A DNA stretch of 9,792 nt from a virus. Lineage: Duplodnaviria; Heunggongvirae; Uroviricota; Caudoviricetes. Made by a program: the position numbers and the translations under genes. The stretch lies in the IMG/VR virus record IMGVR_UViG_2606217116_000003. One strand, given 5' to 3'. The notes under the pieces are model-generated. The model saw nothing but the letters and a program-made list of their open reading frames with translations. It had not been told where the DNA came from and searched no databases. How positions within the stretch are numbered: position 1 is the first letter of the stretch; the number at the start of each line of letters is the position of its first letter. Shown here piece after piece: positions 1 through 9,792 of this stretch.

Positions 1-1164
1 TTACGCCTTCTTTATATCCTCCATAATTCCACAGTGGGACATATTTGGGACATTATCACCAAAAATGTCGTCTATTTTCCTTGCATGCTCTGTCAAATGA
101 TTAGGCGCAAGGTGAGCATACCTACGAACCATTTCTATGGACTCCCATCCGCCCATTTCCTGAAGCACAGATAATGGGACGCCTGACTGGATCAGCCAGC
201 TTGCCCAGGTGTGTCTGAGGTCATGGAAACGGAAATCTTCAATTCCTGCACGACGACAAGCTGATAGCCATGATGTCTTGCTGTCGATGCGCATCTTCCT
301 GACCGCAGGCGTTGATGTTCCATCTGCTCGCTTAGCCGCCTTGGTATGTACAAACACCCATTTGTGATGCTTGCCTATTTGATCACGCAACACTTTACAG
401 GCGGTATCGTTCAGCGCCACACCAATGGCGCGGTTTGATTTGCTCTCTTCTGGATTCACCCAGGCAACTCGTCGCTGCATGTCGATTTGTTGCCATTCCA
501 GATTTATGATGTTCGACTTTCTCAGACCAGTTGCCAGCGCAAACTTGACGACAGATTTCAGTGGTTCGGGGCACTCATCAATAAGGCGTTTTGCTTCCTC
601 CTTTTCCAGCCATCTGACTCGCTTGTTTCTGACCGCTGGTATCTTGATGACAGGCGCTTTTTCCAGCCACTTCCAGTCGCGTTCTGCAGCACGGAGAATG
701 GCCTTTATCATGGCAAGATGCTTTGCCTTTGTCTGAGTTGATACTGGCTTTGGTTCATAAACAGGCGGTTCTTTACCTTTCCTGATGGCGGCCTGAACTT
801 TCTGTTTCCATATTTCTTTCGTCTTTCTGTTATGCATTCTGCTTACAGCAGAGTAAATCTTTGCCTCCGAGATATCTTTAAGCCTTATACCCTCAAAATG
901 TTCAAGCCAGAACTCAATCCGGCTTTTATCTGAATCGAGAGATTTTTTATCAGCTTTTTCCTCAAGCCATCTTAGGCAGGCCTCTTCAAAAGTGACATCA
1001 GGTAAATCCCCTAGCTTTTCTACTCGCCAGAGTTCTGCTTTTCGCTTGTCGTGCAACTCCTGAGCTTGCCGCTTGTCCTTTGTGCCAAGAGATTCCTTAA
1101 TTCGTTTCCCGCCCGGGAGCGAATACGAGGCATACCATATTTCATTTCTGCGGAAGAGTGACAT
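1..1164 (-). CDS. int: Phage integrase, tyrosine recombinase (P22/DLP12-type lambdoid Int), 387 aa
   Basis: Full-length ORF from ATG at 1164 to stop at 1-3. Translation has the tyrosine-recombinase catalytic signature (R in ...ATGLRKSNI..., [11 protein letters not shown], ...VRRYAHL). N-terminus [23 protein letters not shown] matches recalled DLP12/P22-type integrases. Gene ends at the window edge, so att is off-window. Confidence 0.93.
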
Positions 1165-2585: not shown

Positions 2586-2712
2586 TTTGTTCTCCACGTA
2601 TATGCACTGCACCGCGCTGAATTCTGGTAAAAGGAAGCCCTCACCATCCGGCGATTATTGAGTTAATTACGTTTCCATAAATGCCCCCGCAGGGGCATTT
2701 GCAGTAATGAAA

Positions 2713-3276
2713 TCAGGCGGTGAAAGTACCAATAAAGGTTTCTACTTTGCTGTCTTTGAATTTCTCAACAAGCAGATCACGAAATTCGTTAGCCATTTCT
2801 TCCTGCACCGCTTCCAGCTGAATAATGCGCAGAACCAGTACAGGACGATCGCCAGTGATAATGCTGAGGCGTAATTTAAACGGACGTTCTTTCAGACCTT
2901 CAAACGGAACGCATTTAAATTCAAATGCCACTGGCATAATGTCTTTGGTCTTCGCTTCGACAGACTCCATCAGGGAGCGTTTGCCGCTGAAGTCATTATC
3001 TTCAAAATCAGCGGTCTGGTTTGCTTCAATCGTGATTTTACGGACTGCCGCAGCCGCTTTTGTTGCCTGAATGGCGTCACCATTAGCATCAAAGCCCACA
3101 AGGTAGTCGGCCCAGTCTTCGATCCATTCTGCCAGTGACTTCTGGGAGTTACGCTCGCCGTTAACAGACAACAGAGCAGAGAACGGTGCTGTCTTTTTCA
3201 GTTTGAGAGTGGCAGTGTTATCTGCGTGACCTGGCTCATCAATAGTACCCAGGTTAAGCACACTGACGGCACGCAT
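2713..3276 (-). CDS. yfdQ: YfdQ-like (DUF2303-family) prophage protein, probably 5'-truncated
   Basis: ORF from the first ATG at 3276. The same frame stays open about 71 codons further upstream with no ATG/GTG/TTG and crosses the Q start on the other strand. This implies the gene lost its 5' end at a deletion junction. Confidence 0.55.
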
Positions 3277-3443
3277 ATTATCGGCATCGATAAAGCAGCG
3301 GGTGCCTTCATCTGCAAGATCTTTAGAATAACGGGTACCGTGGCATTTGAAGAGAAGTATGGCTCCCAGCTGGAGCTGATATTTCGTTTTATCGATCGCG
3401 CACTGGCGATTGGTGTGCTGGCCTGATTTTGTGGAGAAAGTTA

Positions 3444-3827
3444 ATGCGTGATATTCAGATGGTTCTTGAACGTTGGGGAGCGTGGGCGGCTAATAATCAT
3501 GAAGATGTGACCTGGTCGTCCATTGCCGCCGGTTTTAAGGGATTAATTCCTTCAAAAGTAAAATCTCGCCCGCAATGTTGTGACGATGACGCGATGATCA
3601 TTTGCGGGTGCATGGCCCGTCTGAAAAAGAACAACAGCGATTTGCACGATTTATTAGTAGATTATTATGTAGTCGGTATGACATTCATGTCACTGGCAGG
3701 TAAGCATTGCTGCTCTGATGGTTATATCGGGAAAAGGTTACAGAAGGCTGAGGGCATAATTGAAGGGATGTTAATGGCATTAGATATCCGGTTAGAGATG
3801 GATATCGTTGTTAATAACTCTAATTAA
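3444..3827 (+). CDS. quuD: Late-gene antiterminator Q (DLP12 QuuD-like, 127 aa)
   Basis: ATG at 3444 with GGAGAAAG RBS; the track's TTG at 3429 is rejected as the start. Small Cys-rich protein ([12 protein letters not shown]...HCCSDGY) recalled as matching DLP12 Q. Position immediately upstream of the late/lysis region fits. Confidence 0.75.
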
Positions 3828-3860
3828 TATGCCAATTGTTTACTAAAAATTATTAAAAAT

Positions 3861-3878
3861 GGGGCGTTGAGACGCCCC
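3861..3878 (-). terminator. Intrinsic terminator for leftward transcription (porin transcript end)
   Basis: Perfect 7-bp stem GGGGCGT/ACGCCCC with a 4-nt loop. On the minus strand it is followed by a U-rich run (AUUUUUAAUAAUUUUU). It lies between the convergent Q and porin genes. Confidence 0.5.
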
Positions 3879-4015
3879 CAAAAATAAAGGGTAATATATA
3901 ACAGAAGGTTTATATAGTTAGAAGCAAGGTTGTGCTTCTAAAGGAAGTGGCTGGAGGGACCATTTATATGTGGGGGAGCCACCCCCCCCCGCAACATATC
4001 TTTTTCGTAATCAGA

Positions 4016-5113
4016 TTAGAACTGGTAAACCAGACCTACAGCAACGATGTCATCAGTGCTTACACCGAGTGCTTTAGTGAAGTCATTTTTGTCAAGCAGG
4101 TTGATTTTGTAATCAACGAAAGTAGACATATTTTTGTTGAAGTAATAGGTTGCACCTACATCAACATATTTGACTAAGTCCTGATCGCCCCATACTCCAA
4201 GATCCTTACCTTTAGATTGCAGGTAAGCAACGGACGGACGCAGACCGAAATCGAACTGATATTGTGCAACAGCTTCGAAGTTTTGGGCTTTATTAGCAAC
4301 GAAGTGATCAGCAAATACAGTCATATTCTGGGTTTCAGAATAGGTAGTGGCCAGGTAAATGTTGTTAGCGTCATATTTCAGACCTGCGGCCCAAACTTCT
4401 GCATTTTTACCGGAAGCAAATACTTCAGGAAGAACTTTCCCTGCATTAACTTGAGTGTCGGTACGATCAGATTTCGCATAAGTTGCACCGATACCGAATC
4501 CTTCGTATTCATAGGTAGCAGAGAAACCGAAGCCATCACCGTTACCTTCAGTGTAGTTATCGAAATCGCTACGATCGTTTTTGCCTTGGTACTGAGCAGC
4601 AAAGTTCAGACCATCAACCAGACCAAAGAAGTCGTTGTTACGATAGGTTGCAACACCAGTGGTGCGACCAGTCATGAACACATCTGTTTGGGTCCAGGTA
4701 TCGCCACCGAATTCTGGCAGAACGTCAGTCCACGCACCGATGTCGTATGCTACACCGTAGTTACGGCCGTAATCGATTGAGCCGTAGTCACCGAATTTCA
4801 GGCCTGCAAATGCAAGACGGGTTTTGTCTTTGGAGGAACCTTGAGATTCAGCGCGGTTGCCTTTGAATTCATATTCCCACTGACCGAAACCAGTCAGTTG
4901 ATCGTTGATTTGGGTTTCACCTTTGAAGCCAAGACGGGCATAAGTAGTATCACCATCATCTGCATCATTAGAGGAGAAGTAGTGCTTAGCATTAACTTTC
5001 CCGTACAGATCCAGCTTGTTACTGTCTTTATTATAAATTTCAGCTGCCTGAGCAGACATCGCCATCAGTACTGATGCAGCTACAGCAGAAATTGCCACTG
5101 TTAATTTTTTCAT
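4016..5113 (-). CDS. nmpC: Outer-membrane general porin, NmpC/Lc (OmpC/OmpD family), prophage moron, 365 aa
   Basis: True start is [23 protein letters not shown] (signal peptide) at ATG 5111-5113; the track's upstream start at 5173 adds 20 aa with no signal-peptide logic. Classic porin motifs and C-terminal ...VGLVYQF. Appears intact. Confidence 0.9.
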
Positions 5114-5540
5114 CGTGAGCCCTTTTTTTGAACTATTATTAAAAAATGATGTCACTGCGCGATAAATATTCATCTAATCAATGTGATTATTTCAAGATGT
5201 AAGTTTTGGTTTCTCGTTTGATTTGTGAAGTAGATCTCTATTTTTATCTGAACTTTTTTCTATCGAATCCTATTCATAGCTCTTTGCTGAATAAAAATAA
5301 ATCTATTAGCCAATTTATATTAACGGCTGTTATTTATAAGCGCTCTATAATTTGAAGGTTCAATTTAAATAAGCTAAAAATAACACTGGAAATAATTTGT
5401 TGGTTATTTGTTGAGATTTGCTTATGTATTTGTAGTGGTGTTTTCAATACTCGGTAGCATTCTCGCAAATATCATTTAGTGGTTTACGTACGTAAAAAAT
5501 TGGTTATGCTGTTAAGAGTGGTTACTTCGTCACACAGCTT

Positions 5541-5574
5541 AAACCCGCCGTCGAGCGGGTTTTTCCATTTTTTG
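5541..5574 (+). terminator. tR'-like intrinsic terminator upstream of the lysis genes
   Basis: Stem AAACCCGC/GCGGGTTT (8 bp, 6-nt loop) followed by TTTCCATTTTTTG, on the + strand about 110 nt upstream of the holin start. Confidence 0.7.
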
Positions 5575-5685
5575 AGTCTCGATATTAGCTGATAACCCAA
5601 TACCTGAGTTATTCACTGACTCCGAGTCTGTTACGTTTCGTAGTATTCCCTCAATTTACACCCGCTTTGTCTGCGAGGTGGGGTT

Positions 5686-5901
5686 ATGAAATCCATGGAT
5701 AAGTTAACAACGGGTGTCGCCTATGGCACCTCAGCAGGTAGTGCCGGGTACTGGTTTTTACAGCTGCTAGATAAAGTCACGCCCTCACAGTGGGCGGCAA
5801 TTGGAGTGCTGGGTAGCCTGGTATTTGGCCTGCTGACGTACCTGACAAACCTTTATTTCAAGATTAAAGAAGATAAGCGCAAGGCTGCGAGAGGTGAATA
5901 A
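5686..5901 (+). CDS. S: Class II holin / pinholin with dual-start motif (phage 21 S-like, 71/68 aa)
   Basis: GAGGTGGGG RBS, then MKSMDK... giving Met1 and Met4 starts (antiholin/holin pair). Two transmembrane segments ([19 protein letters not shown] and [17 protein letters not shown]), charged C-terminus. Stop overlaps the next ATG (TAATG). Confidence 0.85.
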
Positions 5902-6125
5902 TGTCGCCATCATTACGCAAGGCTGTAGCAGCTGCTATTGGTGGTGGGGCTGTTGCCATAGCGTCTGTGCTCATCACTGGTCCGAGTGGTGACGATGGTC
6001 TGGAAGGTGTCAGCTACATACCATATAAAGATATTGTTGGTGTATGGACTGTATGTCACGGGCATAACCGCGATTATCTCCGCTCTGGTTATCTGCATCA
6101 TCGTCGGCCTGTCATGGGCTGTTAA
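5901..6125 (+). pseudogene. R: SAR-endolysin (R21-like lysozyme) remnant: N-terminal SAR domain and catalytic-triad region only
   Basis: First about 55 codons ([55 protein letters not shown]) match a SAR endolysin N-terminus. The reading frame then runs out of frame into Rz-derived sequence and stops at 6125. The C-terminal lobe of the enzyme is absent. Confidence 0.75.
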
Positions 6126-6516
6126 TCATTACCGTGATAACGCCATTACCTACAAAGCCCAGCGCGACAAAAATGCCAGAGAACTGAAGCTGGCGAACGC
6201 GGCAATTACTGACATGCAGATGCGTCAGCGTGATGTTGCTGCGCTCGATGCAAAATACACGAAGGAGTTAGCTGATGCGAAAGCTGAAAATGATGCTCTG
6301 CGTGATGATGTTGCCGCTGGTCGTCGTCGGTTGCACATCAAAGCAGTCTGTCAGTCAGTGCGTGAAGCCACCACCGCCTCCGGCGTGGATAATGCAGCCT
6401 CCCCCCGACTGGCAGACACCGCTGAACGGGATTATTTCACCCTCAGAGAGAGGCTGATCACTATGCAAAAACAACTGGAAGGAACCCAGAAGTATATTAA
6501 TGAGCAGTGCAGATAG
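5986..6516 (+). CDS. Rz: i-spanin Rz homolog lacking its native start; frame open upstream into the endolysin remnant
   Basis: From about 6067 the translation ([40 protein letters not shown]...QKYINEQCR) matches recalled lambda Rz nearly residue for residue, but the native MSRV start is missing. Upstream in-frame starts exist (GTG 5986, ATG 5995) inside out-of-frame endolysin sequence. Confidence 0.75.
6275..6457 (+). CDS. Rz1: o-spanin Rz1 lipoprotein, embedded in the +1 frame of Rz
   Basis: AAGGAG RBS then ATG at 6275. [20 protein letters not shown] lipobox followed by a proline-rich segment ([15 protein letters not shown]). 60 aa, matching recalled lambda Rz1. Confidence 0.88.
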
Positions 6517-6547
6517 AGCTGCCCATATCGATGGGCAACTCATGCAA

Positions 6548-6841
6548 TTATTGTGAGCAATACACACGCGCTTCCAGCGGAGTATAAATGCCTAAAGTAA
6601 TAAAACCGAGCAATCCATTTACGAATGTTTGCTGGGTTTCTGTTTTAACAACATTTTCTGCGCCGCCACAAATTTTGGCTGCATCAACAGTTTTCTCCTG
6701 TCCAATTCCCGAAACGAAGAAGTGATGGGTGATGGTTTCCTTTGGTGTTACTGCTGTCGGTTTGTTTCCAACAGTAAACGTCTGTTGAGCACATCCTGTA
6801 ATAAGCATTGCCAGAGCGGCAGAAAACAACATTTTTTTCAT
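6548..6841 (-). CDS. bor: Bor lipoprotein (serum-resistance-associated, Iss family), 97 aa
   Basis: True start is the internal MKKMLFSAALAMLITGC (lipobox) at about 6841, not the track start at 6889. Remainder matches recalled lambda Bor (...ETITHHFFVSGIGQ...LEARVYCSQ). Confidence 0.9.
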   Translation of the reverse strand: MKKMLFSAALAMLITGCAQQTFTVGNKPTAVTPKETITHHFFVSGIGQEKTVDAAKICGGAENVVKTETQQTFVNGLLGFITLGIYTPLEARVYCSQ

Positions 6842-7200
6842 CTTATTATCCTGCATTGTTAAAAACGGCAGAATCCTATGTGACAACAATTAAACGATAG
6901 TTAAATGGATTGATGAAAATTAAAACTATATAGGTGGATGCTCAGCCTATTGGAGGAGGGGGGCACTCAGAATCCTGTGGAATGAAATAAACCGCTCTTT
7001 CTGTCCATTACCCTTTTAGCTGCGCTGTATCGTCGCCGTATTCCCGCATTAACCATGACCGTAGCCCGACGGGGAATTCCTTCTGCGTGAGTGTGCGGGA
7101 ATAATCAAAAACGATGCACACCGGGTTTTACTGTGCTGACAGACGCAGGGTTACCCTCATAGTCGCTTTTCCGGTGCGATGGTGGAAGAAACCGGGATGT

Positions 7201-7395
7201 TTATTCATCATCACTTTGGATTGATGTATATGCTCTCTTTTCTGACGTTAGTCTCCGGCGGCAGGCTTCAATGACCCAGGCTGAGAAATTCCCGGACCCT
7301 TTTTGCTCAAGAGCGATGTTAATTTGTTCAATCATTTGGTTAGGAAAGCGGATGTTGCGGGTTGTTGTTCTGCGGGTTCTGTTCTTCGTTGACAT
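7201..7395 (-). CDS. ylcI: Small basic protein, YlcI/DUF3950-like (64 aa), adjacent to cos
   Basis: 64-aa ORF (MSTKNRTRRTTTRNIRFPNQMIEQINIALEQKGSGNFSAWVIEACRRRL...). The basic N-terminus followed by a short helix is reminiscent of ribbon-helix-helix proteins. Conserved position just upstream of cos in lambda-like genomes, as recalled. Confidence 0.55.
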   Translation of the reverse strand: MSTKNRTRRTTTRNIRFPNQMIEQINIALEQKGSGNFSAWVIEACRRRLTSEKRAYTSIQSDDE

Positions 7396-7559
7396 GAGGT
7401 TGCCCCGTATTCAGTGTCGCTGATTTGTATTGTCTGAAGTTTTTTTTACGTTAAGTTGATGCAGATCAATTAATACGATACCTGCGTCATAATTGATTAT
7501 TTGACGTGGTTTGATGGCGTAGATGCACGTTGTGACATGTAGATGATAATTATTATCAT

Positions 7560-7780
7560 TTTGCGGGTCCTTTCCGGCGATCCGACAGGTTACGGGGCGG
7601 CGACCTCGCGGGTTTTCGCTATTTATGAAAATTTTCCGGTTTAAGGCGTTTCCGTTCTTCTTCGTCATAACTTAATGTTTTTATTTAAAATACCCTCTGA
7701 AAAGAAAGGAAACGACAGGTGCTGAAAGCGAGCTTTTTGGCCTCTGTCGTTTCCTTTCTCTGTTTTTGTCCGTGGAATGA
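7560..7780. other. Lambda-type cos site: cosQ region, cosN (GGGCGGCGACCT at about 7595-7606), cosB with Nu1-binding repeats
   Basis: Sequence ...CGACAGGTTACG|GGGCGGCGACCTCGCGGGTTTTCGCTATTTATGAAAATTTTCCGG... matches the recalled joined right and left ends of phage lambda. An 11-bp inverted repeat GGAAACGACAG/CTGTCGTTTCC lies just upstream of Nu1. Confidence 0.85.
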
Positions 7781-7783
7781 ACA

Positions 7784-8303
7784 ATGGAAGTCAACAAAAA
7801 GCAGCTGGCTGATATTTTCGGTGCGAGTATCCGTACCATTCAGAACTGGCAGGAGCAGGGAATGCCCGTTCTGCGAGGCGGTGGCAAGGGTAATGAGGTG
7901 CTTTATGATTCTGCCGCCGTCATAAAATGGTATGCCGAAAGGGATGCTGAAATTGAGAACGAAAAGCTGCGCCGGGAAGTTGAAGAACTGCGGCAGGCCA
8001 GCGAGACAGATCTCCAGCCAGGGACTATTGAGTACGAACGCCATCGACTTACGCGTGCGCAGGCCGACGCACAGGAGCTGAAAAATGCCAGAGACTCCGC
8101 TGAAGTGGTGGAAACCGCATTCTGTACTTTCGTGCTGTCGCGGATCGCAGGTGAAATTGCCAGTATTCTCGACGGGATCCCCCTGTCGGTGCAGCGGCGT
8201 TTTCCGGAACTGGAAAACCGACATGTTGATTTCCTGAAACGGGATATCATCAAAGCCATGAACAAAGCAGCCGCGCTGGATGAACTGATACCGGGGTTGC
8301 TGA

Positions 8304-8329
<26 letters not shown>
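7784..8329 (+). CDS. nu1: Terminase small subunit Nu1 (DLP12 NohD-like), 181 aa, intact
   Basis: MEVNKKQLADIFGASIRTIQNWQEQGMPVLRGGGKGNEVLYDSAAVIKWYAERD... is the lambda Nu1 winged-HTH N-terminus. Full length with normal stop, 190 nt downstream of cosN. Confidence 0.95.

Positions 8330-9792
<1,463 letters not shown>

Follow-up and report, generated by a model that had tools for sequence, protein, structure and literature searches.

The window analysed here, a stretch of 9,792 nucleotides, is what remains of a DLP12-like lambdoid prophage, now heavily degraded, at the argU/intD site of E. coli, judging from its open reading frames, Pfam scans and a comparison with annotated E. coli genomes. It opens with intD on the minus strand (1-1164), which is followed by a few early genes. 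On the plus strand, an ORF at 3444-3827 encodes the Q-type late antiterminator QuuD, the regulator of the lysis operon, which PGAP annotates as 'antitermination protein QuuD' at the identical KSC9 locus (3844-4227). Just 5' of quuD, at about 3331-3336, we observed a second deletion junction, where an N-terminally truncated DUF2303-family gene on the minus strand abuts an N-terminally truncated DUF968 fragment on the plus strand; the immunity/replication region is wholly gone at this point, and the normal quuD promoter went with it. Between quuD and the lysis cassette lies an intact nmpC-like porin gene on the minus strand (about 4017-5114, 365 aa according to PGAP), the K-12 DLP12 copy of which is presumably interrupted by IS5. 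The lysis genes themselves are preceded by a tR'-like intrinsic terminator on the plus strand (5541-5572), consisting of an 8-bp stem with five G-C pairs (5541-5562) and a T-run, with the tail TTCCATTTTT. By analogy to the design of lambdoid late operons, QuuD should override this terminator. A simple promoter scan found no consensus sigma-70 pR' 5' of the terminator; lambdoid late promoters are often non-consensus.

The lysis cassette occupies the plus strand downstream of the terminator. Its first gene, essD (5686-5901), encodes an intact holin of the P21 S type (Pfam PF04971, E=2e-35; 'phage lysis protein EssD' in PGAP). It is followed by a truncated SAR endolysin gene, here termed rrrD' (5901-6125, 74 aa), which was recognised by alignment with the intact 165-aa RrrD, and by the remainder of rzpD (6067-6516), comprising codons 5-153 and the stop codon of the Rz i-spanin without its native start. 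The transmembrane domain (TMD) of Rz is encoded at about 6067-6123 and is succeeded by the periplasmic coiled-coil domain. The o-spanin gene rzoD, encoding the Rz1 lipoprotein, is embedded in the +1 frame of Rz (6275-6457). At the 3' end of the lysis region lies a bor/iss lipoprotein gene on the minus strand (6548-6841; Pfam PF06291, E=1e-30; 'increased serum survival lipoprotein Iss' in PGAP), and 3' of it are found nohD and then a terminase fragment that is cut by an IS3-family element.

The feature that we followed up is the upstream extension of the Rz frame. This frame, which is +1 relative to rrrD, stays open as far as a TAG at 5959, and counted from GTG 5986 it constitutes a plus-strand ORF of 176 aa (5986-6516). 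According to the ORF listing and the alignment, its upstream part (5986-6066) is endolysin DNA read in the +1 frame of that gene. In-frame codons of the start type are GTG 5986, GTG 5989, ATG 5995, GTG 6007, TTG 6034, TTG 6037, GTG 6040 and ATA 6064. A preliminary description of this DNA had proposed a chimeric i-spanin, in which translation from GTG 5986 or ATG 5995 inside endolysin-derived DNA would lead into an Rz frame that had lost its native start. The open frame and both codons are indeed there, and alignment with an intact allele places the native ATG within a deleted segment of 340 bp. The number of novel N-terminal residues had been given as 22-27, of which the upper value is correct (27 from GTG 5986) and the lower is not, ATG 5995 yielding 24. 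Also borne out was the integrity of the TMD and the periplasmic coiled coil. From T5 onward the ORF is identical to the 153-aa RzpD of the intact allele, and it matches Pfam PF03245 over the full length of the profile (positions 1-126, E=4.1e-54), as is characteristic of an i-spanin periplasmic domain.

Aligned base by base with the intact allele of E. coli APEC E19025, the window shows exactly one gap, the 340-bp deletion, and its flanks are 100% identical to that allele over 467 bases on the left and 536 bases on the right. The junction lies at 6065/6066 and carries a 2-nt 'TA' microhomology. It couples rrrD codon 55 to rzpD codon 4/5, out of frame. Lost in the deletion are rrrD codons 56-165, the ATGA overlap of the rrrD stop with the rzpD start, and rzpD codons 1-4, including the native ATG (6796 of the APEC E19025 locus). 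What is retained of rzpD begins with the last two bases of codon 4, such that native Rz resumes at T5 (ACC 6067). Since 340 cannot be divided by three, translation in the endolysin frame continues for 19 codons into Rz DNA. The locus therefore has the hallmarks of a deletion pseudogene, namely a deletion within a sequence that otherwise equals the intact allele, accompanied by the loss of one start codon and the shift of one frame. A single illegitimate-recombination event at the 2-nt microhomology probably removed the 340 bp.

On the endolysin side, rrrD' comprises the native codons 1-55 (5901-6065), then the 19 out-of-frame codons taken from Rz DNA and a TAA stop at 6123-6125. Only positions 3-26 of the 125-position Pfam profile PF00959 are matched, at 22.2 bits and thus just under the cutoff of 22.3. 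With 55 of 165 residues remaining, the complete lysozyme fold that follows the SAR domain in endolysins of the P21 R/RrrD type is missing, and PGAP lists the gene as a pseudogene ('lysozyme, incomplete, missing C-terminus'). The exact 74-aa product is found on 489 public contigs. This stump has kept the complete SAR segment and the strong, holin-coupled start of rrrD, and it ends with 19 basic out-of-frame residues; going by P21 R, it presumably also retains the positions of the E35/D44/T50 catalytic triad. Ribosomes loaded at the strong rrrD site would translate 55 native and 19 out-of-frame codons and should stop at 6123-6125, within the DNA that encodes the Rz TMD. As judged from the sequence, a membrane-targeted rrrD' peptide is probably made whenever the operon is on.

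The situation is different for Rz1, which the preliminary description had rightly reported as still embedded. The o-spanin gene at 6275-6457 is intact and encodes 60 aa with a lipobox (...VVVGC), a PPPPP stretch and a match to Pfam PF06085 (E=2.9e-20), as expected of an embedded o-spanin. The exact protein occurs under the name RzoD on at least 1000 contigs. Rz1 has its own Shine-Dalgarno (SD) sequence, AAGGAG at 6262-6267, and with ATG 6275 as its start codon it should still be makeable each time QuuD-dependent late transcription proceeds past the terminator at 5541-5572. Neither the Rz nor the Rz1 coding sequence contains further lesions. This is probably uninformative, the allele being too young.

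We next turned to the signals that could initiate translation in the Rz frame. For each start, the 20 nt upstream were paired with the anti-Shine-Dalgarno sequence. The real starts of the cassette scored -7.9 kcal/mol (essD), -7.1 kcal/mol (rrrD) and -8.3 kcal/mol (Rz1, with a spacing of 6), and the native rzpD start of the intact allele reached -5.4 kcal/mol in addition to its ATGA coupling. Among the candidate starts of the extended frame, the corresponding values were -2.2 kcal/mol for GTG 5986, -2.5 kcal/mol for GTG 5989, -3.8 kcal/mol for ATG 5995, whose spacing of 3 nt is too short, -0.9 kcal/mol for GTG 6040, and -3.0 kcal/mol for ATA 6064 at a spacing of 14 nt. ATG 5995 combines a canonical codon with a weak purine-rich GAGUGGUGA just upstream. 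Between 23% and 54% of the ATG/GTG/TTG codons in the window equal or better the scores of 5986, 5989 and 5995, and the pairing scan detected no SD-like signal above background upstream of these three codons. Their accessibility gave a similar picture, with opening energies of 9.0-11.8 kcal/mol as compared to a background median of 9.7. ATA 6064 is likewise poorly accessible (11.6 kcal/mol). The codons TTG 6034, TTG 6037 and GTG 6040 reside in a stretch of 69% A+T with an opening energy of about 7 kcal/mol and have essentially no SD, and the Rz1 start showed the lowest opening energy of all individually scored start sites (6.2). Moreover, the candidate starts at 5986-5995 lie out of frame within the well-initiated rrrD' ORF, where elongating ribosomes would tend to occlude them. 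By computation, then, the extended Rz frame has neither a start codon with its own ribosome-binding site nor coupling to an endolysin stop, the two arrangements from which a functional i-spanin could be initiated. The preliminary description had named as evidence against its proposal the lack of any initiation signal upstream of 6067, with Rz1 translated alone; given background-level SD pairing and average-or-worse accessibility, the computational evidence leans toward this outcome. Internal initiation with a weak SD or with none is nevertheless a known event in E. coli, so that some chimeric protein may be made.

Two indirect routes into the Rz frame were also considered and rejected. A +1 frameshift from rrrD' into the Rz frame would create a SAR-Rz fusion, and a scan of 5959-6125 for frameshift-prone motifs, -1 or +1, found neither an X XXY YYZ heptamer nor a known +1 motif. 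Reinitiation after the rrrD' stop at 6123-6125 is excluded as a way of preserving the TMD because the Rz frame has no start near this stop: after GTG 6040, no ATG, GTG or TTG follows to at least 6130, and the next in-frame Met, as read from the translation, lies beyond the TMD, so that initiation there would give a cytoplasmic fragment.

We also determined how often an open frame with start-type codons arises by chance. Every possible left breakpoint in rrrD was simulated and joined to Rz codon 5. Among breakpoints that produce the observed frame, 82% yielded at least one ATG/GTG/TTG in the open upstream stretch, and 34% yielded an ATG. With both out-of-frame frames pooled, at least one ATG/GTG/TTG was obtained for 59% and an ATG for 27% of breakpoints, and in 29% the open stretch spanned 26 codons or more. 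That the Rz frame is open and offers a start upstream is thus expected by chance and is probably an accident of the breakpoint.

To see how the allele is distributed, we counted its carriers with a 40-mer that can match only across the junction. It was detected in 19 (0.35%) of the 5426 complete E. coli genomes, as a single chromosomal copy in each, and the carriers come from pig, chicken, human, cat and river or waste water, among other hosts and sources. All of them are 100% identical to the window over 5600-6600 and match its positions 2600-8540 in a single piece at 99.8-99.9% identity. They share one haplotype, which includes the early-region deletion and the terminase/tail deletion; accordingly, they contain partial DUF2303 and DUF968 genes and a terminase/tail fusion and have no structural genes. 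In none of the complete E. coli genomes does an intact rrrD-rzpD occur together with this remnant architecture, and the nearest intact alleles (99.6-99.8%) reside in fuller prophages with replication, terminase, portal and head genes. Nor did the junction recur independently among the 19 carriers in the 5426 genomes. As all 19 genomes are invariant across the cassette, neither dN/dS nor decay of Rz is informative. The allele represents one young haplotype and shows no sign of selection, and its narrow distribution together with the further lesions of the element is the pattern of a decaying prophage.

The 3' part of the element has been rearranged as well. In KSC9 (8705-9751, corresponding to the window from 8305 onward), the N-terminal part of the terminase continues in frame into a tail-fibre-like gene, the fusion being annotated as a 348-aa 'phage tail protein'. 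In the window, the terminase-large-subunit remnant starting at 8304 is interrupted by the IS3-family element (about 8545-9792), which contains an orfA-like ORF at 8597/8633-8944. An insertion at about 8545 occurs in none of the 5426 complete E. coli genomes, where the best whole-window matches end at 8560, and this marks the prophage of the window as a further-decayed relative of the 19 carriers. Within the 5' part of the IS element and overlapping orfA, we also observed a full-length match to the Hfq-binding sRNA isrC (Rfam RF01387; 8629-8751, plus strand, 150 bits), such that the 'sRNA family' coincides with IS coding sequence.

The extended Rz ORF is already represented in databases, where apparently nobody has commented on it. 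By exact-sequence look-up, the 173-aa version from ATG 5995 is found on 165 contigs (e.g. ARV31099.1, 'lysis protein'), the 150-aa version from ATA 6064 on 185 contigs (RefSeq/PGAP WP_052318784.1, 'prophage endopeptidase RzpD'), and a 158-aa version from GTG 6040 on 3 contigs. These three mutually exclusive calls, amounting to 353 contigs in total, conflict in the manner typical of an ORF that has no real start signal.

Taken together, we consider it likely, with a probability of roughly 0.8, that the cassette is an ordinary deletion-derived pseudogene in which the endolysin is inactivated, the Rz start and its coupling are lost, and extended Rz is made in trace amounts at most. Deprived of start codon and translational coupling, the Rz frame would be a pseudogene, with unassisted internal codons such as ATG 5995 giving rise to no more than traces of an N-terminally extended protein. 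The structural half of the preliminary proposal, i.e. a deletion fusion with a start-less Rz, an embedded Rz1 and a readable ORF that includes TMD and periplasmic domain, holds in full, while the idea that the chimera is produced or important finds no support. An i-spanin that is really made, starting from ATG 5995, GTG 5986/5989 or the TTG/GTG codons at 6034-6040, would have 158-176 aa, a novel cytoplasmic tail and a longer TMD, adopt an N-in/C-out topology and pair with Rz1, and it may serve the lysis of another prophage or modulate the envelope or vesiculation. We regard such a protein as unlikely, although not for structural reasons. The hypothetical 173- and 176-aa products possess a longer hydrophobic stretch, the best 19-residue segment of which scores -2.2 as compared to -1.6 for native RzpD (sums on the Hessa scale), and the extension places Lys and His on the N-terminal side of this segment. 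Furthermore, the Rz TMD serves merely as a replaceable membrane anchor: lambda Rz remains fully functional when residues ~5-24 are exchanged for an artificial TMD (PMC5295617). Given a good TMD and this tolerance, the chimera, going by hydrophobicity scales and depending on the start used, could plausibly insert N-in/C-out and work if made, even at a low level. In its favour also speak the canonical start codons of the open frame, the calling of the 173-aa ORF by several pipelines, the precedent of Rz1, whose start within Rz proves internal out-of-frame initiation for just these two genes, and the finding that K-12 expresses its DLP12 lysis operon, which is under the control of Q, RpoE and Hha and has physiological activity there (PMC7918800, PMC2408971). 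It is at initiation, rather than in the protein itself, that the proposal is weak. How much a start matters is illustrated by the lambda Rz start-codon mutant M1K, which is lysis-defective (PMC5295617). Set against the AAGGAG and ideal spacing of Rz1, the chimera has a background SD at suboptimal spacing, its start sites would be occupied by ribosomes that are translating rrrD', and a single young haplotype offers no conservation signal; gene calls, which here contradict each other, are no evidence of translation. In addition, without an endolysin in cis, a spanin has no substrate state. The more specific case, in which ATG 5995 is translated at a low but real level and the extended Rz inserts and pairs with Rz1, we hold to be very unlikely. 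If it were true, a natural de novo N-terminus would have been recruited from out-of-frame endolysin DNA, and a prophage remnant would have kept a working spanin that could aid the lysis of a co-resident phage or affect vesiculation.

The RefSeq/PGAP model makes a different prediction, namely that Rz starts at ATA 6064 and yields a nearly native i-spanin of 150 aa (M-TAIISALV...). PGAP annotates this rzpD as an intact CDS in 19/19 complete carrier genomes, ATA is allowed in table 11, and near-cognate codons initiate measurably (10.1101/063800). Even with a good ribosome-binding site, however, AUA reaches only 0.1-3% of the AUG level (10.1101/063800), and the site described above has no SD at a useful distance and opens poorly. 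The codon owes its existence to the deletion junction (CAT|A + TA|ACC), its product would lack N-terminal positive charge, and its selection is explained by a homology-driven pick of the first table-11 codon near the alignment start. The model is thus best read as a homology-driven annotation artefact, and we give it hardly any credence. The remaining possibility is that the deletion adaptively disarmed a domesticated lysis module, with endolysin and i-spanin lost, holin and Rz1 kept, and envelope turnover or vesiculation altered to the benefit of the carrier. An engineered K-12 double deletion of ybcS and rzpD/rzoD increases OMV production 2.4-fold, and the lysis module has been lost in Shigella (PMC7918800); the isolates that carry the allele moreover come from pigs, chickens, humans, a cat and water. 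That engineered mutant, however, also lacked rzoD, which is intact here, and the allele is confined to 0.35% of complete genomes, in one haplotype that carries other decay-type deletions and without independent recurrence of its junction. We therefore judge adaptive disarming to be highly improbable.

Returning to the deletion-derived pseudogene as the preferred reading, its consequences for the cassette are straightforward. With its endolysin destroyed, the cassette should no longer be able to lyse the cell, and for the same reason a spanin, chimeric or not, would be left without a peptidoglycan-free envelope to act on. The biological weight of the deletion should accordingly be small: it would be one more deletion in a decaying prophage, with no lysis whether or not Rz is made. 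For annotation, the three start calls would be artefacts, and the rzpD remnant should probably carry a pseudogene flag. The carriers could nevertheless offer natural material for studying the role of the domesticated DLP12 lysis module, as their allele resembles the hypervesiculating engineered mutant.

The closest known relatives of the cassette are rzpD/rzoD of K-12 DLP12 and the intact alleles of the same argU-intD locus (e.g. APEC E19025), which are orthologues of lambda Rz/Rz1 (PF03245 + PF06085). The window shares the gene order of DLP12 (quuD - porin - essD - rrrD - rzpD/rzoD - bor/iss), is 100% identical to the intact APEC E19025 allele in Rz residues 5-153 and in Rz1, and, as in DLP12 and lambda, has Rz1 embedded in the +1 frame with a separate SD. 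Unlike the intact DLP12 alleles, it lacks the native ATG, the first four Rz codons, the ATGA overlap and 110 of 165 endolysin codons, and the only starts available to Rz are accidental codons in out-of-frame endolysin DNA. The engineered lambda Rz alleles with an artificial TMD or the M1K exchange (Cahill et al., 2017; PMC5295617) together bracket the possible outcome of this natural allele. They were, however, carried on a plasmid with a designed start and ribosome-binding site, whereas in the window 24-27 unrelated residues are added and no ribosome-binding site is provided. The nearest characterised genotype is the DLP12 mutant without ybcS (rrrD) and rzpD/rzoD (Pasqua et al., 2021; PMC7918800), which has in common with the window the loss of the endolysin and, most likely, of i-spanin function and the retention of the holin. 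In contrast to this mutant, the window keeps an rzoD that can be translated on its own, as well as a 74-aa peptide with the SAR domain, and it does so in a far more degraded prophage. Finally, generic deletion pseudogenes of cryptic prophages display the same microhomology-mediated out-of-frame deletion, other large deletions and IS elements in the same element, and a narrow clonal distribution. From these, the cassette differs in nothing essential; its distinction is that the Rz ORF stays long and recognisable and is called intact with three starts.
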